A DNA stretch of 64,000 bases, taken from IMG/VR virus record IMGVR_UViG_3300009164_000039. One strand, written 5' to 3'. The DNA is from a virus. Positions 9,001-36,034 of this stretch are shown in pieces. A program made the translations under genes and the position numbers. Below the pieces are notes generated by a model. It saw only the letters and a list, made by a program, of their open reading frames with translations, was not told the DNA's origin and searched no databases. The first letter of the stretch is position 1. Each line of letters starts with the position of its first letter.

Positions 9001-11189
9001 TGGCCGATCCAAATGGGTTACCATACCTGGTAAAATTATCCGCTGATGGTTATTATTATCTTGATATCAATGGCAAGCCATTGTTAACCGGATATATGAT
9101 GGTTGCTGGTATACAAGGAAAGAGTTCACTGATTCCGTTCAGCGGAGTTGACGCGGCAATGCAAGGTTATGTGTACGGATACAACTATGATAGTCAAGAG
9201 ACTTATCCTTACACAGTATTCAACGAACCTACACAAGTTACTGGGCTAGGATTAGGGTATATTGGTGAACAAGTGAACGGTATAGCATTCACTGACACCA
9301 CTGACTTTGTTGTCATGGTTGGATCGGGTGGAACACTGTTGTGGAACAGTGTTGATACGGCTTACAAGATTCAAAATGGTACTGGTGTTGCTGCCGATAC
9401 AGTTGGACGCATTATTGTAAACTACCAGCCGGTGAGTTACAAAAACTTCAAGTATTTCTCTGACAGTGAATTTGAATACCCATTGAAGAGAGAAGATGTC
9501 AAACACAACTTCCAGGATATTGTGTACGATGGTGAGAAATACATTGTCACCGGCGATAGAGATATTGTGCTATGGGGATACCCAGACACTAAACCAACAG
9601 GAGACTTTGGATTAACCAGCACCACGTTCATCAACATCAATGCTAATATTGCAGCCGGTGCTACCATGACACTACGATCACAGACCAGTAATGTTACTAT
9701 ACAAACCGCTGGTGTGTTATCACGTGGAGCAAGCATAATTACCACAGCCAACTTAAATCTAGTAAACAGCAATTACATGATCACTGCAATTAATGGTAAT
9801 GCCAGTGCAGTGGTTGGAAATGTCGGCTTCACTGGAAAGTTAATTGGATCAGCTGTGTACGGCGCGGCACGTCATGACTTGGTGACATTTACTAATCCAG
9901 TTACCTCAGCATCGTTTAGTCTCAAAACTTCATTGAATAGTGCAAACGGATCAAGCACACTAAGCTTCACGGCAGCAAACTTGTTCTACCCAAATAATAC
10001 CTGTAAGATCACGACTGGCATGATTATTAGTCATGCCAATGTATCTGCAAGTATCGGAGCCTATGCATTTGTTACCAACTACGGCCCAATGGTTGAGTTT
10101 ACAAACAAAGAGCCTGCATTTACTTGGAAGTATGCACCAGGGTTTAATAGAAATCCTGATTTGGATTTTGTGTCAACTGCAATTAACAGAAATACCATTC
10201 AAATTGACCTACCACTTCAAGCTAATCTAGTGGCTGGCACAACTATCACATTCAACGACACTGCTGGTGCCGCATACAACTTTAACCTGTTGAGCAATGT
10301 TTATATTGGTAGCAACATACTGGCTTTTTCAAATCTTGCAGTGACATCAATTGTTCAATCAGGGTGGACCGTGGCCAACACTGTGTATCCTGCTATACAA
10401 CCAAACAGCAATGTAATCTCATCTGGCACTTACTTGTTCAGTGGTGTGCGCAATCGTCAATTCAAAGACATTCCTGACAATATTCCAGGTACAGAGTATG
10501 CCGGAGTCAAAGTACAAGGCAGTGAGTTTGACGATGCTATTCAACTTGATACGGTTATGTCCAGCGAGTTTGGAGATGATGCACTAGGTGTTCGCGCTGA
10601 AGATATTGTTGTTGATGGTGGTCAATTTATTGACACATATTCAAGTTTTGCACCACAGGAATTAATTCCTGGACGATTAACAGACAACTTACAGATCTCA
10701 GTGTTTACCAATAACCCTGCTAATGTGGCAGCAGTTGCTGGTTACAGAATTAGTTACAATGGCCGCGATCCTGCTACATACTATAGAATCAGCGCAGCCA
10801 ACACAACTACACTGGCTGAAGATTTGCCCTACTCGGCATTGAGTATCAAGCTAACTGATGTAAGTGGATTACCAACGCCAAGTCCGGACCAAAACAAGGC
10901 TGGTGTGTTGTTTGTAAATGGCGAGATGATCAATTACTTTACTATCAACCGAGGCAATAACACAGTTGGACAACTTCGCAGAGGTGTAAACCGTACAGGT
11001 ACACCGTTGATACATAAAGTAGGTAGCTTGGTAACGGATTCGTCTAGACTGTCTTATGTGACACAGGACGTGGCAGTTGCAATCACACAAGACTTTACAG
11101 CCAACAACATGATCAACAATGAGAGCTTGTTCCGTGCTGCGATTGACAAAGAAATTGTACAGGGTCAAACCTGGTACATTGTACCATAA
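3..11189 (+). CDS. Giant virion structural protein (baseplate/tail-associated), 5'-truncated; FG-GAP beta-propeller blades, GSG[YF] repeats
   Basis: Frame is open from position 3 (TGG TGG GTG...), so the listed GTG at 9 is not the true start. >3700 aa. Seven FG-GAP-like blades lie between about 2728 and 5730. Repeated 'I.I...GSG[YF]...P.V.I.GGGG.GA.A' units are typical of myovirus baseplate/tail proteins. Followed by fibre genes. Confidence 0.8.
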   Translation, partial: WWVARYGNAPYTGGNNVLWADLEQGYIYSGSRTGIDLRFARPGLSKLIPVDEYGLLISPEKLFPKQFNGRNLGGAFAIGDQAPAETAWRRSSDFPYAMQIALMLTNPAYYFGSLVNTHAYYRNINLDQLVVRNNKQRLTKDTVEIPNVGSNGDPVVHTSGYINWVRDFLVNRGIDPAPKIKSYLKNVNVNLSYATAGFADKNYLNVLAEQGSPTYNNESVIIPDENYEVYLHKSAPVNRAVYSAVIIEKGDNGWKVTGYDLANPYFTIVPSEAQGRSYQISVAGTGATIYRDYRSVKITVPYGHEFNSRQQVVDFLVAHGRYMVSQGFVFDTMNNDMASKQDWILSAKEFLTWSQQGWQSGNILVLSPAFNNLKVQGAMSVVDFVENRTSGSKVLDQNFQIIRNNQFSITRSDNVFTFTANFGQTIGYAEFNLVQYEHILVFDNETVFNDVIYKPAEGIRQFRFKLVGNKTGNWTGALNPPGFMYNSTTIQTWKADITYKKGDFVDVNGIVYLALIDIDATQKFEFSSSWQEVNRKDIKTGLLPNFASLAQKFENIYDVDNLPAAEDLRKFSNGLIGFRQRQFFSDFSLSDESQVKFYQGYITQKGTLDSITALTRATFNNITSEIEVFEEWAVRVGEYGALDSDQSVEVLLKESQLTDDPTTLILLDNADADVPGAVPIRTNDMYQIPVDYSKNIIPTRASYQPQITDFVTAGYVNLDDINGTIFDIQNFSELVNVLPDIGSGYKLWVAKDFSSSWNVYRVTETNNLVTSLTYNLDNFMIVGFDNPHDFVVGEVMGIKGFDTDFDGFYQVIGIDGLKSVLTIATRNIDVLKSAQTITDTGVLFRLKSVRFNLASDINNFTPPNGWKDADRVWIDNNDAINSWAVYQKANAWKTAGNLVLRPGEYTSDEGYGRAVSTNYDNTLLMVGSPLNNSGQVAKINISDPGQNYGSTVVSFSYPDRETGGIRAQGTALRESGTILQANLVTGGSGFTKIPTVIISDFSNLTSTSTRVGSPYVNVASTSTLKVLDRVTSANLANVSNTVVTEIVSTTNVRLNAATTISTGDWVRFDRGTNGNVQARLTPTSIASISIINGGSGYVTAPAIEIIGGGGTGVVANTVITAGVITACYVISNGAGFTEPPAVRVISPTISLATNLVAVLTSTSVASLEVINKGLSIESSYSGYSSNATIAITAVAGDTGVGATGNIRVSYLSIGGIEISVQGQGYLEPPSITITDLTAVGTGFAANTVLTTGVVKTFLRNKETLAYSQIDTIRAFGPDAGEFGADIKMGVYSSAIGAPGSFSDRGTVTLFQFAGGVSWNTQQILQPVSTNAGARFGESVAMSKDENWLYVGAPGINRVYAYAQKQTSLSRTTITLAGGASTYFINLPGATQTAEVSIVGDSGKVYQPGLEFSLIGSTLSFVSLAVLARDTKLFVAQQSNTTTIRCNTSITTYALSSLPESVDAITVIDSSGRIFVPQAEYYLNGQNLVFRNSAELVAVTITVRPLLTYYTLMGTIAPPETIESSAKFGASLATTEYGYQLLIGAPDASVNGVIRAGRAYAYDRNYELFQAFGNNRSFNAREALKQVTRVTVDGIAKVESVDYTKSGSTIVFDAIPDSGSLVRIDLNDFNLIQKLTPPDPVTQGRFGASVTISDDNTGLFVGSPGYNLPGYYFGSVYRYVNRGKVYGDAASTISTASILLAVGDTIRINEQHVSVGLTSGEDFINQINAIGIPGVVAANINGNVVITGDNVLTNNKLDILPSDGAVLADLGLSVYSYIQEIRHPGVGNPERFGSKIKISDNLETLVISSEQGATLKITTFDELTTTFDKTTTSLLDALKQAGAVYVYDFLSVPNDSLAQPSQFVFSQVLQNAYINARDNFGSSLDINKDVIIIGAEFNDNFGNNTGLVHIFTNPDLKKSWTVTRNRTDKVDTNHVNKIFAYDTRTQTIVAQFDYLDPVKGKILGVADQDIDYKTVDDPATYNLGAEARVNIDATGPWGDFQLGQVWWDLSTVKYIDYEQDTVSYRAINWGATFPGSSIDVYEWVSSDFLPSQYITIGGDGVPKHPADTAYVRRAYIDDATGLARVKYYFWVKNKRSITFNATRRTNSVTGIADLIANPASQDIPYVSFIQSNAFNVYNSKSLLQGDYIALHIEYSKVQNSNIVHSEFQLVQQNNPKSKIPTRVINKIVDSISGEDSVGNIVPDLRLPAAGRVGLSLRPRQTLILDNEAATKVFVSFVNSVFASYQVVGKFDLANMLDNEAIPASDSGWYHIEIDIIDQLMYIPTEQLLVGTRSTSGFRVLVDRDSTYQNFWTIYEWQGVVKGWVLIRIQSYDNSRYWSYVNWYATGYNDTVLIDTVVNTVNDISTLNLTSGQIVKVLDNGLGNYEIYEIDSTLRAIPVISEKGTIEVTADAFDVLKAKIGFDNSAFDSQGFSKNAAQELRNIFVAIYNEIFVNDLQGKTNELFFSLVNYIFTEQRSLDWILKTSFLTVAHKLRKLLQFPAFIKDNQDYYQQYIDEVKPYRSQVREYVLNYEGVDESYSKTTDFDFYSYYDKAQSARRNLDTNNADDRAVIRATNRSDWYSSYSYQIQEIVITRSGSGYTVAPAVTVTGGGGSGAKAQAILGAVGTATEGQIIGVELLNAGTGFTSTPTVEFAISSGTGVSAYARLSVPAGTVIAPNDIRNRMVRNISTKLKFDRVSYYATGVRPWISYTTYSAGQVITVNDQKTIEFANYPGDRFPGTRRAYLLNQNFLGASILNEKTLQDSTQATLLDGSYFDNANDRLMAYWQPGSTDLGTVFWSEDAMRVRESDVKTSLQSLYTRIERVAHSTLSPVSSNFAYMAVGFDGAILASVDGKHWVDANTVEISTNLRGVENYGGVYWVAVGAQATVLLSENGLDWGSFAVQSFYYSPVGSGASAQTPALGLPYGLVSENTQSSVDFTDLTTFTSTAATYAVAVGNNGTILINPFTTFTGLIPSWYSVTPQGVTSAQNTQYLRVINKATGYLADPNGLPYLVKLSADGYYYLDINGKPLLTGYMMVAGIQGKSSLIPFSGVDAAMQGYVYGYNYDSQETYPYTVFNEPTQVTGLGLGYIGEQVNGIAFTDTTDFVVMVGSGGTLLWNSVDTAYKIQNGTGVAADTVGRIIVNYQPVSYKNFKYFSDSEFEYPLKREDVKHNFQDIVYDGEKYIVTGDRDIVLWGYPDTKPTGDFGLTSTTFININANIAAGATMTLRSQTSNVTIQTAGVLSRGASIITTANLNLVNSNYMITAINGNASAVVGNVGFTGKLIGSAVYGAARHDLVTFTNPVTSASFSLKTSLNSANGSSTLSFTAANLFYPNNTCKITTGMIISHANVSASIGAYAFVTNYGPMVEFTNKEPAFTWKYAPGFNRNPDLDFVSTAINRNTIQIDLPLQANLVAGTTITFNDTAGAAYNFNLLSNVYIGSNILAFSNLAVTSIVQSGWTVANTVYPAIQPNSNVISSGTYLFSGVRNRQFKDIPDNIPGTEYAGVKVQGSEFDDAIQLDTVMSSEFGDDALGVRAEDIVVDGGQFIDTYSSFAPQELIPGRLTDNLQISVFTNNPANVAAVAGYRISYNGRDPATYYRISAANTTTLAEDLPYSALSIKLTDVSGLPTPSPDQNKAGVLFVNGEMINYFTINRGNNTVGQLRRGVNRTGTPLIHKVGSLVTDSSRLSYVTQDVAVAITQDFTANNMINNESLFRAAIDKEIVQGQTWYIVP

Positions 11190-18784: not shown

Positions 18785-20860
18785 ATGGCATACGCATCAG
18801 GCAGCTCAATCGAAGCAATTGATTACAATAACCTAGCATGGGGATCTGATGCTGGTGGCACCTATGTGACCACCAGCACTAATAAAAACATTGCAGTTGT
18901 TTGGGGTGTAGGTACTGGACGATTTGGTTGGGGACAAAACACAAGCTCTATACCCAAAGCAATAATTAATGCAATCACTACTGCAACCGCGTGTACCGGT
19001 TCCACAATCACTGTTGGGGACTCTACCACAATTGGTGTGAATGAAGCAATTAAATTTGGCAGTGCTATTGGGGGGCTAACTGCCGGCGCAACATACTATG
19101 TGTATGACAAGCCAACCACCAATACCTTACGAGTTGCTGCCACAGTTAATGCAACTGCGCCAATTGATCTAACCACACAAAGCAGTTTATCAGTCACAGT
19201 TCTGCCAGTTGATTTTGCCACAGGCAGTCTCACACAAGTTGCAGCCACTAATAATGTAACAGCCGCTCAATGGAACGGTCTCATACTGGCAACAAACAAA
19301 GCATTATATCACACAGGTGGTGCAAACGTTGCAGTGACTGGTGTGTCGGTTGGCACACCAATTGCCTATTACAGTGCTGTATCTACTGCGGTAACCACAG
19401 TGTGGAACAATGCCAACACTGGTTCGGTAGGATTCACCACAGACGATGCGGCCTTGACATCAACCAACACCGTTACCTGGGCCAACAGCATTGGGTTCGT
19501 ATACACTGTGGATTTTGGCAGTGCCGACGAAATGCGGTATTTTTTCAATGCTGGCGGGAAAATAAAATTCAGCCTCACTGGGCCTGCAGGCACAGGACGC
19601 AATCTAGATTGGCGAACACTTTGTACTGCAATGGGTACCATAGTATTTGGATACAACACCACTACCAAATCTGGTGGGTCAGGTACTCCAGATACTCTAC
19701 TAAGCACAGTAGGCAACGGTGGCTTCTGGGGACCTCATACATCAGGAGTGGACCGAGAAGATTTCCAACAGACTTCCACAGGCACTGCATACACAACCAA
19801 TTACATTGAAATTCTTACTAAAGTGTCTGGTGTCACTGCTGGCAGCAGTGGCGGTAAAGGTACTAGATTGACTTTTACTATTAATCTGGTAGATGCTAAT
19901 AGCAACATCTATCAACCTGCGGTGGCAACAGGCACAGTGGCCAGCATGGTGGTTGTTAGACCAACATCAAGTGCAGTGAGTGTGACAGGCCCCAGTGGCA
20001 CTGGCGTGACCAAGACCACAGACGCCGGTACTACCACAGCGTATGCGATTCCAACCGGAAGCCAAACGTTTACCACAGTCGGGGATACCACTTTTACTGT
20101 ACCTGCCGATGTAACATCAGTTAGTGCTTTTGTTGTTGCGCCTGGAGGATTTGCAGGTGCCACCGCAGGTGGTGGCGGTGGCGGCTCAGCTTACATAGGA
20201 ACGGTCACAGTGACTCCGGGCCAAACTCTCTATGTCAGAGTAGGAGATAAAAATGCATCAGGTGCCAGCACTGCGTCGTTGTCTATAGTGTCAACTACTA
20301 CACCAATTGACAGTTCACTTAATTATCTAGTTGCAACTGCTGGTGCAAGCACCGGCACCGGTAATGGTGGCTCTGGCGCAGGTGTTGGTGCGTTTGCCGC
20401 AGGTGTTGGTGCAAATGCTGGGCAAGGTGGGCAGAATCCTCTTGGTGGAGGAGGTGGCGCAGCGGGCTATGGTGGCACTGCTGGTAATGGTGGCTATCCA
20501 TATGTAAGCGGAAACCAACAACTGCAAGGCGCTTATATCTATGGTGCTCAAGGTGGCGGCACCGGTGCTGGTGGTGGTGGCGGTGGTGTACTCTCTGCGT
20601 CAGCGGCTGGAGGTGGTGGTGGTGTGGGACTTAATGGAATTGGTACACCTGGTAGCAGTGGTGGCGGCACAAGTACACCGACCACTCAAACTGCTGGAAC
20701 GCCCGGCGGCGGCGGATCTGGTGGTGCCAGTGGTAGTGTTAAAAATGGTGGAGACTTTGGTGGTGGTGGCGGCGGAACGGCTATCAGCGGCACACCTGGT
20801 GGCGGCGCCGTTAGAATAATCTGGGGGCCAAGCCGAAGTTACCCGAGCCAGGCAGCATAA
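18785..20860 (+). CDS. Virion/fibre protein with glycine-rich C-terminal domain
   Basis: 'RYFFNAGGKI' core, then 'FTVPADVTSVSAFVVAPGG...GGGGG...G..GAVRIIWGP' glycine-rich domain typical of phage fibre-associated proteins. Confidence 0.7.
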   Translation: MAYASGSSIEAIDYNNLAWGSDAGGTYVTTSTNKNIAVVWGVGTGRFGWGQNTSSIPKAIINAITTATACTGSTITVGDSTTIGVNEAIKFGSAIGGLTAGATYYVYDKPTTNTLRVAATVNATAPIDLTTQSSLSVTVLPVDFATGSLTQVAATNNVTAAQWNGLILATNKALYHTGGANVAVTGVSVGTPIAYYSAVSTAVTTVWNNANTGSVGFTTDDAALTSTNTVTWANSIGFVYTVDFGSADEMRYFFNAGGKIKFSLTGPAGTGRNLDWRTLCTAMGTIVFGYNTTTKSGGSGTPDTLLSTVGNGGFWGPHTSGVDREDFQQTSTGTAYTTNYIEILTKVSGVTAGSSGGKGTRLTFTINLVDANSNIYQPAVATGTVASMVVVRPTSSAVSVTGPSGTGVTKTTDAGTTTAYAIPTGSQTFTTVGDTTFTVPADVTSVSAFVVAPGGFAGATAGGGGGGSAYIGTVTVTPGQTLYVRVGDKNASGASTASLSIVSTTTPIDSSLNYLVATAGASTGTGNGGSGAGVGAFAAGVGANAGQGGQNPLGGGGGAAGYGGTAGNGGYPYVSGNQQLQGAYIYGAQGGGTGAGGGGGGVLSASAAGGGGGVGLNGIGTPGSSGGGTSTPTTQTAGTPGGGGSGGASGSVKNGGDFGGGGGGTAISGTPGGGAVRIIWGPSRSYPSQAA

Positions 20861-23531: not shown

Positions 23532-24418
23532 AAACTGTAGACATTGCAGACCTAGATGTAATTTTTCTAACCTACGACGAACCTCGCAGAGAAGAGTCAT
23601 GGGCCAAAATCAAAAACATGGTACCTTGGGCCAAGCGTGTGGATGGCATAAAAGGCAGTGATGCCGCACACAAAGCCGCAGGTGCGGCCAGCGATACAGA
23701 TCGCTTTATACTAATTGACGGCGACAATATTCCTGACCCAGAGTTCTTTAACAAACAAATCACACTGGATCCACATCATGAAAGATGTGTGTTGCGTTGG
23801 AGAGCAAGAAACGCCATCAACGGACTCATGTACGGCAATGGTGGACTCAGCTCGTGGACCAAAAGTTTTGTAGAAAGCATGCGCACACACGAAGCCACTG
23901 ATGGTCGTAATGAAACACTGGTGGAGTTTTGCTTTGAACCTGACTACTGGGCCATGCATGACTGCTACTCAACCACGTATCCTAATGCCAGTCCATTTCA
24001 GGCCTGGCGAGCAGGCTTCCGTGAAGGTGTTAAAATGTGTCTGGATCGCGGAGCAAGACCCAACTTGGACGAGTTTGAAAAACGTGCCCACAATCGTAAT
24101 CTTGATCATTTGACCATTTGGCAAAGTGTGGGTGCTGATGCAGAGAATGGCTTCTGGGCCATATACGGTGCTAGACGTGGCACACAAATGACCATGCTTA
24201 CAGACTGGGATTACACCCAGGTACAAGACTTTGATGAACTGGCAAAACTTTGGACTGTGTACCAAAATGACGGCCCTGACGAATGCACTGAAGTAGGCAA
24301 CATGCTACGCAAACGCCTGGGACTTAACATTGTGGATCTAGACCCCGAACCCAGTGCATTTTTCAAACATCACTACAAGTCAAATTTTGTCAATAGAGGA
24401 ATAATGAGTCGTGAGTAA
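23528..24418 (+). CDS. Glycosyltransferase-like protein (GT2-like fold)
   Basis: 'DVIFLTYDEP...RVDGIKG...AHKAA...RFILIDGDN' with DxD; ATGA-coupled to the upstream gene. Confidence 0.6.
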   Translation: MKTVDIADLDVIFLTYDEPRREESWAKIKNMVPWAKRVDGIKGSDAAHKAAGAASDTDRFILIDGDNIPDPEFFNKQITLDPHHERCVLRWRARNAINGLMYGNGGLSSWTKSFVESMRTHEATDGRNETLVEFCFEPDYWAMHDCYSTTYPNASPFQAWRAGFREGVKMCLDRGARPNLDEFEKRAHNRNLDHLTIWQSVGADAENGFWAIYGARRGTQMTMLTDWDYTQVQDFDELAKLWTVYQNDGPDECTEVGNMLRKRLGLNIVDLDPEPSAFFKHHYKSNFVNRGIMSRE

Positions 24419-25793
24419 AAGTGATTTCATGACAGCCGCAGAACAAATGCGCCACACACTAGGCGAAGGTCTTTGCTTGGCCAAATGGAAACAGGTTAGC
24501 TTGCACTTGCCCACAGGATTGAACAATTCATGCTATCATCCTCCACTACACAAGATTCCTGTGGAACTGCTAGCAGGCAATCCTGGCGCACTGCACAATA
24601 CTCCACATAAAAAAGCTCAGCGCAAGATCATGTTGAAACATGAACGTCCAGACGAGTGTAGTTACTGCTGGTCAGCAGAAGACAATGGACAACTCAGTGA
24701 CAGGCACTACAGGTCAGGCGAGGAGTGGGCCGCAGAGGATCTTGACAAGATATTGGCCTCAACCGGAGACGAAGATGCATTACCTAGCTATGTGGAAGTT
24801 AATTTTAATCATGCTTGTAATCTTAAATGTAGCTATTGCAGTCCGCAATTTAGTTCAAGCTGGGCCGCTGAAGTTGCACAACATGGCGGATTCCCTACGT
24901 CCAGCCCTCACAATAGTCCTGAGTATTTTACTGGTAGTCGTCGCCCTATTCCTGCCCGAGAACACAACCCCTACGTTGATACCTTCTGGGAATGGTGGCC
25001 AGAGCTGTACCCCAAGCTAAGACATTTTAGAATGACAGGTGGTGAGCCACTGATGGATCACAATACCTATCGTGTGTTTGAATACGTGCTGACCTTGCCG
25101 CATCCATTGTTGCATTTGGATGTGACCAGCAACTTCAGTGTGGAGCCTGTGTTGTTTGAAAAGTATCTTGGCTATGTCAAACAGTTATGCAACACACAGA
25201 TTGAACACTTCATGCAGTATGTGAGCCTGGACACCTGGGGCAGTCAAGCAGAGTACATACGCAATGGCATGGACTTTGTGAGAGTGTGTGACTATGTGGA
25301 ACGCTATTTAGAGGAAGTACCCAATCGCAACAGCCTTACGTTTATCATGACCATGAACAATCTCAGTGTCACGGGCATGCATGACATGCTGGATTGGATA
25401 CTGGAACTACGTGCCAAGTACAGTAAAACATATCAGCGTGTGTGGTTTGACACACCGTTGCTGAGACAACCACGTTGGCAAAGCCTGCAGATACTGCCGC
25501 CTGCGTATGCCAACAGAATGAAAATAAACCTAGAGTTCATGCGAGCACACCTAATCACAGATGATAGTTTTGTGGGATTCAAAGATTATGAAATACAGCG
25601 CATGGAACGAGACATTGCCTGGATGACTGAGCCACAAGACGCACAAGAAGTCAATCATGCACGTGCTGACTTCTATAGATTCTTCAACGAACACGACCGT
25701 AGACGCGGTACTAACTTTTTACAAACATTTCCAGAGATGAGCCATTTCTGGTGGGAATGCAAACATCATGCCGAAACTGAACAACGAAACTGA
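24411..25793 (+). CDS. Radical SAM protein with N-terminal twitch/SPASM-like domain (1 of 6)
   Basis: CNLKCSYC motif; 'TGGEPL'; N-terminal 'CLAKW...SCYHP...ECSYCW'. Confidence 0.9.
   Translation: MSKSDFMTAAEQMRHTLGEGLCLAKWKQVSLHLPTGLNNSCYHPPLHKIPVELLAGNPGALHNTPHKKAQRKIMLKHERPDECSYCWSAEDNGQLSDRHYRSGEEWAAEDLDKILASTGDEDALPSYVEVNFNHACNLKCSYCSPQFSSSWAAEVAQHGGFPTSSPHNSPEYFTGSRRPIPAREHNPYVDTFWEWWPELYPKLRHFRMTGGEPLMDHNTYRVFEYVLTLPHPLLHLDVTSNFSVEPVLFEKYLGYVKQLCNTQIEHFMQYVSLDTWGSQAEYIRNGMDFVRVCDYVERYLEEVPNRNSLTFIMTMNNLSVTGMHDMLDWILELRAKYSKTYQRVWFDTPLLRQPRWQSLQILPPAYANRMKINLEFMRAHLITDDSFVGFKDYEIQRMERDIAWMTEPQDAQEVNHARADFYRFFNEHDRRRGTNFLQTFPEMSHFWWECKHHAETEQRN
24775..25020 (+). CDS. Overprinted 81-aa two-TM membrane protein (+1 frame inside radical SAM gene 1)
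   Basis: GGAG at 24765-24768, 6 nt before ATG 24775. Hydrophobic segments 'LILIMLVILNVAIAV' and 'ALTIVLSILLVVVALFL'. Local switch of the host gene to T-ending codons. Confidence 0.55.
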   Translation: MHYLAMWKLILIMLVILNVAIAVRNLVQAGPLKLHNMADSLRPALTIVLSILLVVVALFLPENTTPTLIPSGNGGQSCTPS

Positions 25794-27123
25794 TATAGAA
25801 TTCAAACGCAGAGTGATTGACATCAAGTCAACCAGCTTCTGCGGAGCCAAATGGTACAATGCTACCATATGGTTGGGTAGTGGACAAACAACCAGCTGCC
25901 ACCACCCACCTGCACACTCAATTGACTTGCAAGAAATAAAAACCAATCCTGCCGCACTGCACAATACCACTCGTAAAAAAGCTGATCGTGAAATGATGCA
26001 AAAAGGTGAACGCCCAGCAGGCTGTGAATACTGCTGGAAGATAGAAGACATGGGCCCTGAGTCTGTCAGTGACCGTGTGTACAAAACTGTAATACATTCC
26101 GAGGAGGACCTAAATGTTGCATTTGCCAGACCCAGCTACACAGACTTCAACCTTCGCACGTTGGAAATTGCGTTTGACAGAACTTGTCAGTTCGCTTGTT
26201 CTTATTGCAACCCTGCTTTTAGTAGCACATGGGTTAAGGACATTGGTAATAACGGGCCATACACAGGATTGGTATCTGACGGCAGGAACCATTTTACTCA
26301 CGCTCATGATAGTAGTCAACTGTATAAATTCAATGAAGTTAATCCGTACGTGGAAGCATTCTTCCAGTGGTGGGAAACAGATCTCCACCAGACACTAACA
26401 GAGCTTCGCATCACCGGAGGCGAGCCACTCATGTCAGGCTACACCTGGCAGCTGATTGACTGGTTCAAAGCCAATCAAGGCAAGAGCCATACCAAACTGG
26501 CCATCAACAGCAATCTTGGCATGGAGCCGGTCAAGATGCTGGATTTTATTCGGCGTGTGGAAGGTATTCCGCATCTGGAAATCTACACCAGCAACGAAGC
26601 ACTGGGCGCACAAGCAGAGTATATTCGTGACGGATTGAATTACCGGCAATGGCTCAGCAACATGGAGATGTTGATCAATTCAGGCGCAGTAAATCAAATG
26701 CATGTGATGTGTACAGTCAATGCATTGTGTCTGGAAAGCCTGCCTGAATTTTTAGATGAATTGGTTGTGTTGAAGAAAAAGTACAGCAGAGACTTTCCTA
26801 ACTTCACGTTGAACATCTTGCGTTTTCCTAGTTTTCAAAGTCCACTGGTATTACCATATGAGATTAGACAAAAGCATGCAGACCGCCTGGCACAGTTTTT
26901 GGTACGCCACAAAGGACAAAACTACTTGCATGAGCATGAGATAAACCACGTGGAACGTCTAGTAAAGTATTTGCTTGAAGTAGATACACCTCATGCAGAA
27001 GCATTTGAAATGCCTAAATTGTTGAATGACTTCCGACAGTTTTATATCCAATATGATCAGCGCCGCGGAAAAAACTTTGTAAATACATTCCCGGCTCTCA
27101 AGGATTGGTATGAAACACTCTAA
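25768..27123 (+). CDS. Radical SAM protein with N-terminal twitch-like domain (2 of 6)
   Basis: CQFACSYC; 'ITGGEPL'; N-terminal 'FCGAKW...SCHHP...GCEYCW'; close paralogue of 24411..25793. Confidence 0.9.
   Translation: MPKLNNETDIEFKRRVIDIKSTSFCGAKWYNATIWLGSGQTTSCHHPPAHSIDLQEIKTNPAALHNTTRKKADREMMQKGERPAGCEYCWKIEDMGPESVSDRVYKTVIHSEEDLNVAFARPSYTDFNLRTLEIAFDRTCQFACSYCNPAFSSTWVKDIGNNGPYTGLVSDGRNHFTHAHDSSQLYKFNEVNPYVEAFFQWWETDLHQTLTELRITGGEPLMSGYTWQLIDWFKANQGKSHTKLAINSNLGMEPVKMLDFIRRVEGIPHLEIYTSNEALGAQAEYIRDGLNYRQWLSNMEMLINSGAVNQMHVMCTVNALCLESLPEFLDELVVLKKKYSRDFPNFTLNILRFPSFQSPLVLPYEIRQKHADRLAQFLVRHKGQNYLHEHEINHVERLVKYLLEVDTPHAEAFEMPKLLNDFRQFYIQYDQRRGKNFVNTFPALKDWYETL
26114..26398 (+). CDS. Overprinted 94-aa two-TM membrane protein (+1 frame inside radical SAM gene 2)
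   Basis: GAGGAGG at 26101-26107, 6 nt before ATG 26114, which follows an in-frame TAA. TM-like 'LVSSLVLIATLLLVAHGL' and 'YLTAGTILLTLMIVVNCI'. Confidence 0.6.
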   Translation: MLHLPDPATQTSTFARWKLRLTELVSSLVLIATLLLVAHGLRTLVITGHTQDWYLTAGTILLTLMIVVNCINSMKLIRTWKHSSSGGKQISTRH

Positions 27124-28324
27124 GACATTTTGCATATTGCCATGGATACATCTTCATGCATTCCCTGATGGCCGTGCGTATCCTTGTTGTATGGGAGAAT
27201 ATCACTCACCCATTGGCGATCTTAAAACACACACAATGGAGCAGGTGTGGAATCAAGCGCCACTAGCTACCATGCGAAAGAACATGCTACAGAATGTCAA
27301 GTCCAAAGAGTGTGTCAAATGCTATGAGCTAGAAGAAAATGGTTTTGTCGGCATGCGACAAAGCATGAACCGTGCGTTTGCACATCACATGCCATTGGCA
27401 GATCAAACACTTCCTGATGGCACACTGCCTGACTTTCGACTACGCTACTATGACATTAGATTTAGTAATCTGTGTAATTTCCGTTGCCGCAGTTGTGGCA
27501 GTGTGTTTTCCAGCAACTGGTATGATGACGAAGTTGCCGCACATGGTCAAGTACAGCATCCCAAGATCATGTTTGCTGGCCAACACAAACAAGACATGTG
27601 GGAGCAAATGCAACCGCATATACCACATCTAGAACAAGTGTACTTTGCAGGCGGCGAACCCTTGATCATGGAAGAACATTATCGTGTGCTAAAAGAACTA
27701 GTACAGAGAGAAATGTTTGATGTCAGACTGGTATACAACACCAACTTTAGTGAATTAGATTTCAAAGATGAAAGTGTACTGGAGTTATGGAAACTGTTTA
27801 AGAATGTCAGCGTTGGTGCTAGTCTAGACGCCAGCGGCACACGAGCAGAGTACATTCGCAAAGGCACAGTATGGCACAAGATTGTACACAATAGAGAACG
27901 CATGTTGTCTGTGTGCCCTCAAGTTGACTTCTATATAAGTAGTACCGTGGGCATACTAAATGTATGGCACTTGCCAGACTTTCATCGTGAATGGGTTGAC
28001 TTGGGATTGATACGCCCGCAAGATTTCAACATCAACATGTTACAATCACCTGAATGGCAACGTGCAAATCATCTGTCACCGGAGTTGAAACAACAAGTGA
28101 AAGAACGCATACACAATCACCTTGAGTGGCTTGGTCCATTGGATCACATGAATCGTGCAACCAATGGTTATCGGAGTATTATAAAGTTTATTGATCAACC
28201 TGCTGATGCAGATCAACTAAAAGAGTTTTTTAGAGAAACTGATCAATTTGATCAAATACGCAATGAGAGTTTTGATGCTACCTTTCCTGAACTGACTGGA
28301 TTGAGAGACCATGCTACCAAATAA
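27110..28324 (+). CDS. Radical SAM protein with N-terminal twitch domain (3 of 6)
   Basis: 'FCILPW.H...DGRAYPCC...IGDL...ECVKC', then CNFRCRSC and 'FAGGEPL'. Confidence 0.9.
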   Translation: MKHSKTFCILPWIHLHAFPDGRAYPCCMGEYHSPIGDLKTHTMEQVWNQAPLATMRKNMLQNVKSKECVKCYELEENGFVGMRQSMNRAFAHHMPLADQTLPDGTLPDFRLRYYDIRFSNLCNFRCRSCGSVFSSNWYDDEVAAHGQVQHPKIMFAGQHKQDMWEQMQPHIPHLEQVYFAGGEPLIMEEHYRVLKELVQREMFDVRLVYNTNFSELDFKDESVLELWKLFKNVSVGASLDASGTRAEYIRKGTVWHKIVHNRERMLSVCPQVDFYISSTVGILNVWHLPDFHREWVDLGLIRPQDFNINMLQSPEWQRANHLSPELKQQVKERIHNHLEWLGPLDHMNRATNGYRSIIKFIDQPADADQLKEFFRETDQFDQIRNESFDATFPELTGLRDHATK

Positions 28325-29525
28325 CAATATATGTGTGCTACCGTGGATGAGCATAGAAGTAACCCCAATGGGTAACAGTCGCCCGTGTTGTTTGGCCATT
28401 GATGAAATACCAGACAACACTGGTAAATCCTACGACCTTACCGCAGTGCCTATTCGTGAAGTATATCACAGCAAATACATGCAGGATCTAAGGCAACAGT
28501 TTCGTGCAGGAGAAAAACCCAGCACATGCACACGATGCTGGACAGAAGAATCTGCAGGACGTACCAGCAAACGTATGAACATGTTGGCCAAATTCAACAA
28601 TGATATCCAATCAATTGAATGGGACACAGACACCCCTGAACAATTATGGTTCTTGGATCTTAAACTAGGCAACATCTGTAATCTCAAATGTCGTATCTGT
28701 GGATCCTGGAGCAGTAGTAAATGGGCACAAGAAGAACTAGACTACTACCCAACAGCCACTAGAGAAGAACGCAAAAAACATTCAGCGTATGTATGGCTAC
28801 GTCAGGGTCAGTGGCCACGTGAAAGCATTGACTTTTGGAACAACATTGATCAAGTGCTGCCTGGTGTGCGCTACTATGAATTTACCGGTGGCGAACCATT
28901 CTTGATTCAAGAACATTTTGATTTGTTACAACGCACAGTAGATCAAGGCTATGCATATCTTGTGGATGTACACTACAACACCAATGGCACACAGTATCCA
29001 GAAGCCGCAGTGGAGATGTGGAAAAAGTTCAAGCATGTGAACATTGCATTCAGCATTGACGATCTTGGCGCACGATTTGAATATCAGCGTTATGGCGCCA
29101 ACTGGGCAGAAGTGGAACAAAATCTAGACCGTTACTTAGAGTTAAGCAAAACACACACCAACATCACGCTACAAATGTGTATAACTGCAAATATACAAAA
29201 CGTATTGTACTTGCCTGAAGTCATGGACCATGTGTGGGCAAAAGGTTTTCGTGACGTATACATCAACATGTTACATGATCCAATTCAACTCAACATCAAG
29301 CAAATGACTCCAGTGGCGATTGAACTGGTATGTAACAGACTAAATCAAGTTCCGACCAGCAACAGATTCTATCGTGATTTCCAACAGTTAATAACGGTGA
29401 TACAAACAGGTACTGGTAGTGATGGTCAAGAGTTTTGCAAAACTATCAAACAAGGTGACGTGTATCGCAAACAAAATTTTGCTGACCATCACCCAGACAT
29501 AGCAAAGGCCATGGGATATGAATAA
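28311..29525 (+). CDS. Radical SAM protein with N-terminal twitch domain (4 of 6)
   Basis: 'ICVLPW...RPCC...CTRCW', then CNLKCRIC and 'FTGGEPF'. Confidence 0.9.
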   Translation: MLPNNNICVLPWMSIEVTPMGNSRPCCLAIDEIPDNTGKSYDLTAVPIREVYHSKYMQDLRQQFRAGEKPSTCTRCWTEESAGRTSKRMNMLAKFNNDIQSIEWDTDTPEQLWFLDLKLGNICNLKCRICGSWSSSKWAQEELDYYPTATREERKKHSAYVWLRQGQWPRESIDFWNNIDQVLPGVRYYEFTGGEPFLIQEHFDLLQRTVDQGYAYLVDVHYNTNGTQYPEAAVEMWKKFKHVNIAFSIDDLGARFEYQRYGANWAEVEQNLDRYLELSKTHTNITLQMCITANIQNVLYLPEVMDHVWAKGFRDVYINMLHDPIQLNIKQMTPVAIELVCNRLNQVPTSNRFYRDFQQLITVIQTGTGSDGQEFCKTIKQGDVYRKQNFADHHPDIAKAMGYE

Positions 29526-30675
29526 AGTTATCCCGTTGGTTAATGTTAGTGCATTGCAAGCCCTGACGCCCGCACCTCTTGGTCGCGCAGAGGTTGACTC
29601 TGACTACATGACACGGTATATACAAACTGGAATGGATTTTAACAAGGATCTTGGACTAGCAGGCAAATATTGTTATCACCCATTTAACACAGTCACGATA
29701 GACCATCGAGGTCGTTGCTATGTATGCACCTGTCAGGCATGGTTACCAATCAGCGTAGGTAACATTTTAGATTTTAATTCGCTGAGTGAAATTGTTCACA
29801 GCTCACGTGCTAGAGAGATACAACGAAGTATCGTAGATGGCAGTTATCGTTACTGTGACAATAAAACTTGCGGGTTATTAATCAGCGACGCAATGGAAAC
29901 TAGAATTGAGCACAAACCAGACACTGTGAATTGGATCAATTTCTGTATCGATGACAGTTGCAACTTACAGTGTCCTAGCTGTCGCACAGATTTAATATTT
30001 CATAAACAAGGTCCAGAATTTGATCTACGTATGAAAATATCACAGCATGTGAGCAAGCTGATCAGCGAACACAATCATTTTTTACGATTTACACTAAGCA
30101 ACGATGGGGATCCATTTGCTAGTCATGTGTACAGAAACCTAATGACAACTATTGCGCCACAACTGGTCAATCAGCTGGAGATTGAAATAGTAACTAACGG
30201 CATATTAATGAAGTCACATTGGCACGAAATTGAAAACATATACCCTAACCTCACACTAATCAAAGTCAGTTTTGATGCTGCCACCGAACAAACATACAAC
30301 AAAACACGATGCGGCGGCAGTTGGAACAAAGTAACTGAAAGCACTAGATTTGTAGCTGATTGGCTGGCTCAACGCAAAGCACAGCATCTCAATGCATATA
30401 CTAGATTGGTAGCTAATTTTGTAGTGCAACAAACAAACTATCATGAGATGATTGACTTTGTAACACTGTGCAATTCGTTGGGTGTTGATCAGATCTTGTT
30501 TCAAAAAGTAACTAACTGGAATACGTGGATTGATGCCAACGGCACAGATCAGTACAGCGCACATGCAGTATGGCAACAGTCGCATCCTGAATATCACAAG
30601 CTGAAAGAAATACTAAAAGATCCTGTGTTTCAACAGCACAATGTTAAACTAACTAACCTAGCGGATCTACTATGA
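29518..30675 (+). CDS. Radical SAM protein with N-terminal twitch domain (5 of 6), divergent
   Basis: 'YCYHPF...GRCYVCTC...GNIL...YCDNKTC', then CNLQCPSC; the GGE motif is replaced by 'NDGDPF'. Confidence 0.85.
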   Translation: MNKVIPLVNVSALQALTPAPLGRAEVDSDYMTRYIQTGMDFNKDLGLAGKYCYHPFNTVTIDHRGRCYVCTCQAWLPISVGNILDFNSLSEIVHSSRAREIQRSIVDGSYRYCDNKTCGLLISDAMETRIEHKPDTVNWINFCIDDSCNLQCPSCRTDLIFHKQGPEFDLRMKISQHVSKLISEHNHFLRFTLSNDGDPFASHVYRNLMTTIAPQLVNQLEIEIVTNGILMKSHWHEIENIYPNLTLIKVSFDAATEQTYNKTRCGGSWNKVTESTRFVADWLAQRKAQHLNAYTRLVANFVVQQTNYHEMIDFVTLCNSLGVDQILFQKVTNWNTWIDANGTDQYSAHAVWQQSHPEYHKLKEILKDPVFQQHNVKLTNLADLL

Positions 30676-31961
30676 ACAAACCTGATTCGTTATGCTTGGC
30701 TCCTTGGACACACACATATCTTAGTCCGCAGACTGAGCGCCGCATGTGTTGTGCAAGTCGCGAGCCTGCACAAAACTTTCAACAGTATATTGACACCAGC
30801 GCCGGTTCTGGCAAGTATATACCTATCACTCTGGACGAACATTGGAACGGTGACCACATGCGCTCCGTACGAAAACGCATGCTGTCCGGCGAAACATTAC
30901 CCGAGTGCGAAGTATGTAATGATAAACTGTTGAATACCTCTGTGTATAGAGATTACTTCACGCACTTGTTTGCACACAAACTTGACCAAGTACATGCCAG
31001 TACAGATGACACCGGGCACACTACAATGCAACCGATCAGCTGGGACTATAGATTTAGTAATCTTTGTAATTTCAAATGTCGCATGTGTGGAGACATGTTG
31101 AGCAGTGCATGGGAAAGCGAGCAACGTGTACATGGCATGATAGATTGGAACAATCCAAAGAACAACTGGATGAAGCCAGTCATACGCGATGAAATACATC
31201 AGTTTCAAACCACGCAGGTTGAACATGAGTTCAGTCAGGCAGTTGAAGAACATCGTGTTGAGGAGATATATTGGGTGGGTGGCGAACCCTTGATGTACGA
31301 ACAACATTGGAAGTACATGAAAAGAATAATTGAATTAGGGGACGGACCAAATGTCTATGCAAGATATAATACAAATCTCAGCCGTGTTGATTATCGCGGT
31401 GTCAATCTTTATCGGGATATTTTATCTGGGTTACGGGATTGGCAAATCTGCGCATCGCTCGACGGAACAGGTAAAATTGGTGAGTACATTAGATCAGGTC
31501 TCGACTTCGATGCTTGGCTTGAGAACTTCGCTCAAGGAGTTGCGATTGCGACTAATCCTAGACAGATGCGAATCGACTACACCCTTACCCTGCCAGGAAT
31601 GTTTGAGGTTGAACGGATTGAACGACTGTCCGCAACCTACGGAGTACAAGTTCTGGCGAAGGTAGTTTTTAGTTTCAGTCCGGACATAGTTATGTCACCT
31701 TTAGCCCTACCTCGGGACATGTTACACTCTTGGGTAGATGAAATACTTTCTGTGGTGAAGACCGACTCGTTAAAGGATATCTTGGTTCAGCTGAAAACTA
31801 GACCTACGTTTGCGGAACAGTGGCCCGACCAATATCAAACAGCACTGCGCCGTGGTAAAGACCGTGTGTTGAAATTAGAAAGCATACGAGACAATCCTAT
31901 CACAATGGCAGAGATATTGAGTGAACGATCGGATGTATTGCACTGGTGGAATAACATATGA
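30672..31961 (+). CDS. Radical SAM protein with N-terminal twitch domain (6 of 6)
   Basis: 'LCLAPW.H...RRMCC...ECEVC', then CNFKCRMC and 'WVGGEPL'. Confidence 0.9.
   Translation: MNKPDSLCLAPWTHTYLSPQTERRMCCASREPAQNFQQYIDTSAGSGKYIPITLDEHWNGDHMRSVRKRMLSGETLPECEVCNDKLLNTSVYRDYFTHLFAHKLDQVHASTDDTGHTTMQPISWDYRFSNLCNFKCRMCGDMLSSAWESEQRVHGMIDWNNPKNNWMKPVIRDEIHQFQTTQVEHEFSQAVEEHRVEEIYWVGGEPLMYEQHWKYMKRIIELGDGPNVYARYNTNLSRVDYRGVNLYRDILSGLRDWQICASLDGTGKIGEYIRSGLDFDAWLENFAQGVAIATNPRQMRIDYTLTLPGMFEVERIERLSATYGVQVLAKVVFSFSPDIVMSPLALPRDMLHSWVDEILSVVKTDSLKDILVQLKTRPTFAEQWPDQYQTALRRGKDRVLKLESIRDNPITMAEILSERSDVLHWWNNI
31351..31665 (+). CDS. Overprinted 104-aa TM + coiled-coil protein (+1 frame inside radical SAM gene 6), i-spanin-like architecture
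   Basis: AGGGGA about 8-9 nt before ATG 31351. N-terminal TM 'ISAVLIIAVSIFIGIFYLGYGIG'. 4-3 heptad L43/L47/V50/M54/L57/L61/L64/L68. Four Cys in the tail. Confidence 0.55.
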   Translation: MSMQDIIQISAVLIIAVSIFIGIFYLGYGIGKSAHRSTEQVKLVSTLDQVSTSMLGLRTSLKELRLRLILDRCESTTPLPCQECLRLNGLNDCPQPTEYKFWRR

Positions 31962-33894: not shown

Positions 33895-34587
33895 ATGAAA
33901 AAAATACTTGTTCTAGCCTGTAGTAGCGGATTGGGCGTCGAATGCGAAGATGTAATCAATCATTGCTGGCCCAACATACTAGGAGACCTTACTAACACCG
34001 CAGTAACCAATGCCTCTGAAGCTGGCGGTAGCAATGACATGATGTATCGCAAAGCACTGTCAATGACTGCAACTGAATCGTATGACCTGGTATTGATTGC
34101 ATGGACAAACATTGATCGCATGGAAGTGTATTTTAACGAAGAGATTGTGTCTAATAGATTACCTGACGTACTAATCAGTGAAAAATTTCCTCGTGTGCAA
34201 GGACCTGGGCCAGTCAGTGTGTCTCATCATTGGAGTGACTTGCCTTGGATTGAAAAATACTATGGCATGCACTATAATGAACGTTACTTACTAGAGCGAT
34301 GGTTGCACCAAGCAATCACACTTCAAGAATATTTCAAAGCCAAAAAACAGCCATTTGCTTACATATCAAACTTTGGAAACACTCAGTATCTAAAAAATCA
34401 TACAGACATTCCTATGTTAAAGATGCTGGATGTAAAATCTTGGATTGGTAACTGGCCTGGGTCAACTTTACGCGACTGGGGTGCACCAATTGGCGTACAC
34501 AAATATGGTCATTTTACGTTAGACGCACATAAATTTATTGCAGAAAAAATACATGAGCATATTAGGAATCGCGGCTGGCTTTCATGA
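33895..34587 (+). CDS. Divergent SGNH-like protein
   Basis: 'LVLACSSGLG', 'NASEAGGSN', 'VLIAWTNIDRME', C-terminal 'GHF...AH'; same layout as 31958..32719. Confidence 0.5.
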   Translation: MKKILVLACSSGLGVECEDVINHCWPNILGDLTNTAVTNASEAGGSNDMMYRKALSMTATESYDLVLIAWTNIDRMEVYFNEEIVSNRLPDVLISEKFPRVQGPGPVSVSHHWSDLPWIEKYYGMHYNERYLLERWLHQAITLQEYFKAKKQPFAYISNFGNTQYLKNHTDIPMLKMLDVKSWIGNWPGSTLRDWGAPIGVHKYGHFTLDAHKFIAEKIHEHIRNRGWLS

Positions 34588-36034
34588 TGCCGCACTAGCG
34601 GTAATTGACAAGCATGGGGACATTGTATTTGCTGGACACAGTGAGCGTTACAGCAAAATCAAACACGACAAAAATTTATCGCCAGGCTTGATTGCCGAAG
34701 TATGCAAATTTGATATACATGAAATAGCATATTATGAACGTCCTTGGGCACAACAGTTGCGTAGATTGTACACCGGCGAAGGAGTAGAGTGGAACAAGCT
34801 CACAGTCCGGCAGATATTAAAAAAACAAATTAACGAGTTCAGTGCATTCTCTGGACCAGTAGTAGCATATCCGCATCATCTGAGTCATGCGGCAGCAGGA
34901 TTTCAAACAAGCCCATTTACCCGTGCCACAGTGGTTGTGATAGACGCTGTAGGTGAATGGGACACAATAACCATCTGGGGCGCAGAATACGATCGCAATG
35001 GACACGCACAGTACAAGAAGTTATGGCAACAAGGTTACCCGCATAGTATAGGATTGTTCTACAGTGCAATGACCCAGCGAGTAGGGTTGAAGCCCCTGGA
35101 CGAAGAATACATTTTGATGGGCATGGCAGCGTATGGTGAGCGTGGCTTTGGTGACCTATTAAAAATGGACATGATAGAATCAGAATTTGACATTCGATTC
35201 AAACACAATCTACACACTGGTATAGATAAAAAATATCTAGCCTACATCAGTGACTTTGATATAGCTGCCGGCGCACAAGATCTTGTGGAAACACTCATAC
35301 TCAATGTTATGCTACGTGCTAAGAAGTTTGGGTGGAGTAGCAATCTGGTGTACGGTGGAGGTGTTGCGCTCAACTGTGCCGCCAATAGATTTTTAGGAGA
35401 ATATTTTGATAACATTTGGATTATGCCTTGTCCTGGTGATGCTGGTTCTAGTCTGGGGGCCGCCGCTGTTAGTTTCCGTGGTTGTATTAATTGGACTGAT
35501 GCTTGTCTTGGGCATGATATACCTGGCGACTATCCTGTTAATGATGCCGTGGCTGCTCTTTTGCGTGGTGATATTATTGGTGTGGCGAGCGGTCGAGCCG
35601 AGTTCGGCCCGAGAGCGTTGGGAAACAGAAGTCTCCTCGCAGACCCAAGAGGAACAGAAATCAAAGACAAAGTAAATGAAATCAAACGTAGACAAAAGTT
35701 TAGACCCTTTGCACCCGTTGTATTGGAAGAGATGGCTGATCAGTATTTTACTATGCCTCGCGGGTGGGATCGCAGTCGGTACATGCAGTCAGTCGCTGAC
35801 TGTAGGCATCCTGAGTTATTTCCTGCTATTGTTCACGCTGACGGAACTAGTCGTGTTCAGACCGTACCGAAAGATGGAAGCGGAATTAGAGAGCTCCTTG
35901 AAAAATGGTTCGTGTTAACTGATTGTCCTATGTTGCTAAACACCAGCCTAAACATACGTGGCGAACCTATGGTCAATGATCGTGCTGACGCAGACCGCTT
36001 TGAAAAGTTATATGGCATAAAGGTCTACAGTTAA
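34553..36034 (+). CDS. O-carbamoyltransferase, NodU/CmcH/TobZ family
   Basis: 'GFHDAA', 'HHLSHAA', 'VIDAVGE', 'EYILMGMAAYG', 'GRAEFGPRALGNRSLLADP', 'FRPFAP', 'HADGTSRVQTV', 'LLNTSLN'. Confidence 0.95.
   Translation: MSILGIAAGFHDAALAVIDKHGDIVFAGHSERYSKIKHDKNLSPGLIAEVCKFDIHEIAYYERPWAQQLRRLYTGEGVEWNKLTVRQILKKQINEFSAFSGPVVAYPHHLSHAAAGFQTSPFTRATVVVIDAVGEWDTITIWGAEYDRNGHAQYKKLWQQGYPHSIGLFYSAMTQRVGLKPLDEEYILMGMAAYGERGFGDLLKMDMIESEFDIRFKHNLHTGIDKKYLAYISDFDIAAGAQDLVETLILNVMLRAKKFGWSSNLVYGGGVALNCAANRFLGEYFDNIWIMPCPGDAGSSLGAAAVSFRGCINWTDACLGHDIPGDYPVNDAVAALLRGDIIGVASGRAEFGPRALGNRSLLADPRGTEIKDKVNEIKRRQKFRPFAPVVLEEMADQYFTMPRGWDRSRYMQSVADCRHPELFPAIVHADGTSRVQTVPKDGSGIRELLEKWFVLTDCPMLLNTSLNIRGEPMVNDRADADRFEKLYGIKVYS
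35406..35675 (+). CDS. Overprinted 89-aa multi-TM protein (+1 frame inside the carbamoyltransferase), holin-like architecture
   Basis: AGGAGA at 35395-35400, 5 nt before TTG 35406. First 60 residues contain no charged amino acid; charged C-terminal tail. Confidence 0.6.
   Translation: MITFGLCLVLVMLVLVWGPPLLVSVVVLIGLMLVLGMIYLATILLMMPWLLFCVVILLVWRAVEPSSARERWETEVSSQTQEEQKSKTK
35676..35918 (+). CDS. Overprinted 80-aa two-TM protein coupled to 35406..35675
   Basis: TAA (35673-35675) is directly followed by ATG (35676). TM-like 'WLISILLCLAGGIAVG' and 'LTVGILSYFLLLFTLTELVVF'. Confidence 0.5.
   Translation: MKSNVDKSLDPLHPLYWKRWLISILLCLAGGIAVGTCSQSLTVGILSYFLLLFTLTELVVFRPYRKMEAELESSLKNGSC

Follow-up and report, generated by a model that had tools for sequence, protein, structure and literature searches.

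A probable overprinted gene for a small membrane protein inside a radical SAM gene of an uncultured phage

Introduction

Does an open reading frame (ORF) that lies wholly inside an enzyme gene of a large phage encode a protein of its own, or is it an accident of the codons that its host gene happens to use? The question is raised by a stretch of 64,000 nucleotides from the IMG/VR record IMGVR_UViG_3300009164_000039, here called the window, which looks like part of a jumbo phage. Within it, gene 2 (25768-27123, plus strand), the second in a row of radical SAM genes, contains a nested ORF of 94 codons plus a TAA stop at 26114-26398 (+), whose putative product is referred to as P0001. The nested ATG is offset by 346 nucleotides from the start of gene 2 (346 = 3 x 115 + 1), which places it in the +1 frame. 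An initial annotation, made from the letters of the window, had drawn attention to the arrangement GAGGAGG-acctaa-ATG inside a coding sequence, and this description holds. The Shine-Dalgarno (SD) heptamer GAGGAGG occupies 26101-26107 (+), where the host frame reads Glu-Glu-Asp, and is separated from the ATG at 26114 by a spacer of 6 nucleotides. A +1-frame TAA (26111-26113, +) stands immediately 5' of the ATG.

Here, we argue that this ORF is very probably a real overprinted gene for a membrane protein with two transmembrane helices, a view based on comparative sequence statistics. One sequence cannot decide the matter, because the heptamer on its own is unremarkable (three occurrences in the window against 2.47 expected) and long alternative-frame ORFs are common in the window; several nested ones reach 100 amino acids or more, and a length of 94 is in itself not rare. 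When the synonymous codons of gene 2 are shuffled in the window sequence alone, an equally open +1 frame appears in 0.5% of the shuffles. The claim that the nested ORF goes beyond chance therefore rests on the comparison of orthologues and not on the single sequence.

Selection for an open +1 frame

Eighty orthologous loci were collected from IMG/VR, many of them on contigs of 200-350 kb, and yielded 71 distinct gene 2 orthologues from jumbo-phage contigs. Their identity to the window protein is 63-70%, and among themselves they range from 58 to 99% (mean 68%). As a null model, synonymous codons were permuted within each gene, which holds the protein and its codon usage fixed, and host codons 115-209 were scored as the nested region. 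Over this region the +1 frame is free of stops in 45 of the 71 orthologues, where the shuffles predict about one. Counting the stops themselves gives the same picture: 64 are observed inside the region against 248 ± 12 expected, and 1633 outside it against 1684 expected, which confines the depletion to the nested region. Synonymous sites are near saturation, as the codon identity given the same residue is 0.43-0.44 in thinned sets compared with 0.40 at saturation. Thinning to 31, 13 and 7 representatives leaves 17, 6 and 5 open frames, respectively, against expectations of 0.39, 0.15 and 0.13.

Of the five alternative frames, +1 alone shows a strong depletion of stops. The +2, -1 and -2 frames are not depleted, and the +2 frame is open over host codons 115-209 in none of the 71 orthologues. 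The codon-antiparallel antisense frame is mildly depleted, with 168 stops against 244 expected, and is open in nine of the 71. An antisense ORF of 92 amino acids (26110-26388, minus strand), co-extensive with the nested ORF, was considered as the selected frame and rejected on these figures; that TTA and CTA codons are tolerated wherever no +1 stop results also counts against it. This antisense ORF is best explained as a side effect, because NTA codons are avoided on behalf of the +1 frame.

The choice of codons reveals how the +1 frame is kept open. A +1 stop requires a host codon NTA before A or G, or NTG before A. Where valine is followed by a codon starting with A, a +1 stop results in 12% of cases within the region, compared with 53% outside. 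Similarly, leucine codons before G end in A in 13% of cases inside compared with 45% outside, and the harmless G-ending leucine codons account for 47% inside. Before C, where leucine codons never make a stop, the A-ending ones are equally frequent in both parts of the gene (45% inside, 46% outside). Such context-dependent codon choice fits selection against +1 stops, and would not result if T-ending codons were simply favoured overall.

More distant relatives behave differently. Among 70 further gene 2 orthologues, which are 44-54% identical to the window protein and share the same CxxxCxxC region, a single one has an open frame, and in most bins the number of stops is close to the expected one, with no depletion. 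The gene for gp202 of Ralstonia phage RsoM2USA contains stops in the region and lacks the nested ORF. Orthologues of paralogues 3 and 4, analysed with the same pipeline, gave no comparable signal. Gene 3 does carry a +1 ORF of 86 amino acids over its own CxxxCxxC region (27372-27632, +), which had been considered as a third equivalent and was rejected, as its stops equal the expectation in 66 orthologues. By these counts it arose by chance, and it serves well as a negative control.

Start signals and boundaries

The upstream boundary of the nested ORF is conserved. A +1 stop stands at host codon 114, directly before the ATG, in most orthologues, and the bin of host codons 110-120 holds an excess of stops (59 against 46 expected). 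At the other end, most of the orthologous ORFs terminate at host codon 209, 212 or 214. Fifty-two of the 71 sequences have an ATG at host codon 115 or 116, compared with 30.5 ± 3.3 in the shuffles. Of the 39 intact ORFs that start with such an ATG, 34 have an SD core (GAGG, AAGG, AGGA or GGAG) 4-11 nucleotides upstream, where 11.8 are expected. The effect is visible in the codons used at host position 112 of the intact set, where GAG occurs 26 times and GAA 3 times, and AAG 10 times and AAA once; the gene-wide counts run in the opposite direction (GAA 1447 and GAG 504, AAA 1302 and AAG 575). Decayed orthologues have often lost the ATG and the SD as well.

The initial annotation had called the SD perfect and had asked for its conservation. 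What is kept is the core of 4-5 nucleotides, resembling in length and spacing the SDs of ordinary genes in the window. The complete heptamer is not conserved, being present only in the window and in one orthologue (L038).

A predicted membrane hairpin

The same annotation had described a product of 94 amino acids with two hydrophobic helices and a basic tail, lying over the CxxxCxxC region, and the orthologues support this, with hydropathy and charge indicating that the helices and the tail are selected features. In hydropathy windows, transmembrane helix 1 is predicted at nested residues ~19-39 (26168-26230) and transmembrane helix 2 at residues ~53-73 (26270-26332), followed by a C-terminal tail rich in Lys, Arg and His (residues 74-94, 26333-26395), all on the plus strand. 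Helix 1 lies over the host-frame codons of the CxxxCxxC motif (CQFACSYC, gene 2 residues 140-147, 26185-26208, +). Relative to the shuffles, the +1 products have raised hydropathy at host codons 130-150 (z +6.7 and +13.5) and 170-190 (z +6.6 and +5.6) and are more hydrophilic at host codons 200-210 (z -10.6). Across 37 aligned orthologous products, the mean net charge is +2.2 at the N-terminus, -0.3 in the loop and +4.1 in the tail, and following the positive-inside rule both ends are predicted to be cytoplasmic. AlphaFold2 predictions for the 37 orthologues place helices at residues 7-45 and 50-84 with a pLDDT of 64, which corresponds to modest confidence. The invariant glycines G40, G86 and G87 are uninformative in this respect, since they are dictated by Trp codons of the host frame, at least in the window sequence.

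No known family could be assigned to the product. P0001 had no match in Pfam, NCBIfam or PHROGs, a scan of the 37 orthologous products at E<=1 returned only scattered, unrelated membrane families, and the ESM Atlas contained no named relative. A homologue search with the nested protein retrieved one ENA entry of 99 amino acids, which most likely represents this nested ORF as predicted on a different contig. The lack of any family or look-alike fits a de novo origin. P0001 starts with MLHLPDPATQ, has its only Cys in helix 2 and shows no signal-peptide or lipobox pattern, which speaks against an o-spanin.

Taken together, we read the comparative statistics as showing that selection in the window's clade maintains the open frame, the ATG, an SD core 5-8 nucleotides upstream and the character of the predicted product, hydrophobic, hydrophobic and basic in turn. 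This selection biases the third codon positions of the host gene such that the +1 product acquires two hydrophobic stretches and a basic tail. As a plausible mechanism, ribosomes would initiate internally on the operon mRNA at the nested SD and ATG, independently of host-frame translation. We infer that the product of ~94-97 amino acids, P0001 in the window, inserts into the inner membrane of the host as an N-in/C-in helical hairpin, with both ends in the cytoplasm.

Weighing the alternatives

Several observations weigh against a genuine gene and temper its interpretation. Internal stops interrupt 26 of the 71 orthologues and are scattered over the tree. The orthologues share a phylogeny, and for this reason the z-scores from the shuffles overstate significance. 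Control regions without an ORF sometimes reach hydropathy |z| values of 6-8, so that decisive weight falls on the stop statistics and, among the z-scores, on the largest alone, and the structure predictions are of the modest confidence given above. At synonymous sites, conservation is hardly higher in the region than elsewhere (0.459 compared with 0.438) and was not used as support. Because this extra conservation is negligible, the amino-acid sequence appears to be only loosely constrained, and selection would act on openness and on physico-chemical character.

Could the open frame then have arisen by chance, from pyrimidine-rich or T-rich third positions over the Cys/Phe/Tyr/Asn-rich core of a radical SAM protein, with GAGGAGG representing nothing but Glu-Glu-Asp codons? 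The ordinary frequency of the heptamer, the abundance of nested ORFs of at least 100 amino acids in the window and the unconserved +1 ORF over the CxxxCxxC motif of gene 3 all agree with this explanation, as does a third-position T content of 0.42 in the region compared with 0.30 outside, which is partly a matter of amino-acid composition. Nevertheless, shuffles that preserve the protein predict four times more stops and about one open frame instead of 45. In addition, the avoidance is specific to stop-making codon pairs, the ATG and the SD exceed expectation, and the distant orthologues that share the motif show no effect. By these comparisons, chance is largely refuted and has become a very improbable explanation. 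A different proposal would be that the act of translation or an RNA signal matters and not the peptide, for example through a pause at the SD that allows loading of the Fe-S cluster, or through tuning of host-gene expression. The position of the SD, ~25 codons before CxxxCxxC, would suit such a role, and so would the scant extra synonymous conservation and the frequent loss of the ORF. Pausing, however, needs no ~95 downstream codons free of +1 stops, it leaves the selected hydrophobic stretches and the basic tail unexplained, and the distant orthologues with the same Fe-S motif have neither the SD nor the ORF. We consider it improbable.

Programmed +1 frameshifting could in principle fuse the N-terminal twitch domain to the membrane hairpin, as the ORF lies on the same strand, in the +1 frame and downstream of a complete N-terminal domain. 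The +1 stop just before the ATG in most orthologues would leave only one or two codons for the shift, conservation of the ATG and the SD indicates a separate initiation event, and no slippery sequence or hungry codon was apparent, although no systematic search was made. This makes frameshifting extremely improbable, and the preferred explanation remains a separately initiated, overprinted gene.

Possible function and relation to known systems

What might such a protein do? Our best guess, a tentative one drawn from analogy, is a holin-like or pinholin-like protein or another membrane-permeabilising or lysis-timing protein that would be expressed together with the operon. Should this be wrong, it could be another small membrane protein, for instance a superinfection-exclusion factor or a helper of the glycan pathway. 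Several results stand against the holin guess. The searches in Pfam, NCBIfam and PHROGs returned no holin family for the nested product, the 38 window ORFs scanned against Pfam contain no endolysin domain, and the nested ORF of gene 2 shows no dual-start motif. PF00959 was absent from three complete related genomes, in which other endolysin families were not searched. Moreover, the neighbours of the nested ORF are radical SAM and sugar-pathway genes and do not form a lysis cassette.

Overprinted genes for small hydrophobic membrane proteins in the +1 frame are known from other phages. Lysis gene E of phiX174 is located inside gene D, and the L gene of MS2 extends across the coat and replicase genes. 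Both arose de novo, are loosely constrained in sequence and have no known homologues, and in these respects they are like the nested ORF. They belong to tiny, size-constrained genomes and encode proteins with a single transmembrane domain and a proven lysis function, whereas the nested ORF is part of a genome of ~340 kb and its product has two predicted transmembrane helices. Likewise, Rz1 of the tailed dsDNA phage lambda codes for a small envelope-targeted protein, has its own start and is wholly embedded in Rz, whose strand it shares and to which it lies in the +1 frame [PMC6139136]. The Rz1 protein is a lipobox-containing lipoprotein whose periplasmic domain is rich in Pro, and its gene lies inside that of its functional partner. 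In contrast, the nested ORF would encode a two-helix hairpin without a lipobox, is located inside an unrelated enzyme gene and has no known partner.

Class II holins and pinholins such as S21 68 have two transmembrane domains with an N-in/C-in topology [PMC7312051]. As far as prediction goes, the nested product shares with them a length below 100 amino acids, two transmembrane helices, this topology and a basic cytoplasmic C-terminal tail; it differs in that it has no holin family match, no adjacent endolysin and no dual-start motif. A further parallel is offered by the E. coli genes laoB and nog1 [PMC5810103, PMC4683798], which are similarly young, taxonomically restricted, born inside an existing gene and missed by annotation. 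These two are antisense overlaps with expression data, while the nested ORF is a same-strand overlap supported by comparative sequence statistics.

Origin of the nested ORF

When did the nested ORF arise? With gene 1 as the root of the tree, all 71 close gene 2 orthologues fall into one clade (support 0.94), and four successive sister groups, one of which consists of RsoM2USA alone, are without it. This pattern indicates a single gain at the base of the window's clade, followed by scattered decay in the 26 orthologues with internal stops. The duplication that gave rise to genes 1 and 2 appears to be much older than the ORF, because the two proteins share only 33% identity, compared with 51% between gene 2 and RsoM2USA gp202. 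The gene would accordingly have been born de novo after this duplication, and its later decay in about a third of the descendants suggests that it is accessory.

The initial annotation had reported a nested gene at the equivalent position in both paralogues. For gene 1 this stands with weaker conservation and a corrected start. A +1 ORF of 81 amino acids with two hydrophobic helices lies at 24775-25020 (+), and its conserved start is the ATG at 24775, 6 nucleotides after a GGAG at 24765-24768, and not the one at 24640 given before. Over host codons 124-186 of gene 1, 29 of 62 orthologues have an open +1 frame (4.6 expected), with 55 stops against 117 expected and a hydropathy z of +9.3. Many of the orthologous products begin with M-K-M. 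The ORF is absent from the gene 1 orthologues of the sister clade. Genomes in which one of the two nested ORFs is intact tend, weakly, to have the other intact as well (odds ratio 3.7, p = 0.03).

Based on this distribution, the nested ORFs of genes 1 and 2 look like parallel gains at equivalent sites. The idea that the overprint predates the duplication of their hosts, which the initial annotation had suggested, does not survive the comparison: a single one of the 70 outgroup gene 2 orthologues is open and the sister-clade gene 1 sequences have no ORF. An ancestral overprint was rejected on parsimony, since one gain would need many losses, and two gains in one lineage are preferred. The WKL.L..LV likeness between the two products had already been suspected to follow from the host frame, and this is indeed the case, as host codons for V/L-E-V/I read TGG AAG TTA in the +1 frame.

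Further nested ORFs in the operon

Additional +1 ORFs were found in two other genes of the operon. Radical SAM gene 6 (30672-31961) contains an ORF of 104 amino acids at 31351-31665 (+), whose product is predicted to have an N-terminal transmembrane segment followed by a helical, Cys-containing tail. Over host codons 230-280 it has 3 stops in the +1 frame where ~206 are expected in 76 orthologues, a signal stronger than that of the gene 2 ORF. A carbamoyltransferase gene (34538-36034) contains two abutting +1 ORFs, one of 89 amino acids with a TTG start (35406-35675) and one of 80 amino acids with an ATG start (35676-35918), both with very hydrophobic products. In 67 orthologues, 46 stops are observed against ~294 expected over codons 290-350, and 32 against ~159 over codons 380-440, with a conserved cluster of stops separating the two open stretches. 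These stop counts support the reading of the three ORFs as nested +1 genes.

One could go further and imagine a hidden second layer of genes in this operon, in which at least five +1-frame genes for small membrane proteins (one each in genes 1, 2 and 6 and a pair in the carbamoyltransferase gene) make up one functional membrane module. Such a module might act, for example, as a dispersed lysis system with holin-, antiholin- and spanin-like parts or as an export apparatus for the glycan product of the operon. We regard this extension as unlikely. If it were true, the overlap would lock the co-expression of the nested products with the enzymes.

Genomic context of the host genes

The gene 2 product of 451 amino acids is an N-terminal-twitch radical SAM protein. 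It scores 301 bits against the NCBIfam model NF033640 (N_Twi_rSAM), for which the cut-off is 170, and contains the CxxxCxxC motif, both of which place it in this family. Its paralogue gene 1 (24411-25793, +; 460 amino acids) belongs to the same family, and at 33% identity genes 1 and 2 form the closest pair among six radical SAM genes that are arranged in tandem, mutually overlapping, at 24411-31961 (+). Five of the six reach the cut-off of NF033640, and gene 5 scores only 28.9 bits. The array is flanked by sugar-pathway genes, namely DegT aminotransferases, an epimerase and the carbamoyltransferase. At the protein level, the sole named relative of gene 2 is gp202 of RsoM2USA, and at the DNA level the host genes had no match among GenBank phages.

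The wider gene content of the window includes thymidylate synthase and DHFR, besides the sugar-pathway genes and a Peptidase_G2 domain protein. An ORF of more than 3,700 codons at 3-11189 (+) leaves the window at its 5' end, and the genes downstream of it encode Ig-like, Gly-rich and Peptidase_G2 domains; this large ORF and the genes after it presumably encode fibre or tail-spike proteins. Two more long alternative-frame ORFs were recorded in the window, one of 179 amino acids in the +2 frame (19270-19809, +) inside 18785-20860 and one of 335 amino acids (46321-47328, +) antisense to an AAA ATPase gene at 46270-47394.

Implications

Overlapping genes are usually attributed to genome compression in very small viruses, and embedded ORFs are discarded by annotation pipelines. 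Here, a phage of ~340 kb with no obvious size pressure harbours a statistically well-supported embedded gene of datable origin. The codon-shuffle test on orthologues that was used to recognise it can be applied likewise to other phage genes. The locus offers a natural system to study the birth of membrane proteins de novo from T-rich wobble positions, and it points to a class of phage membrane proteins wholly missed by present annotation, some of which may possibly serve as lysis or exclusion factors.

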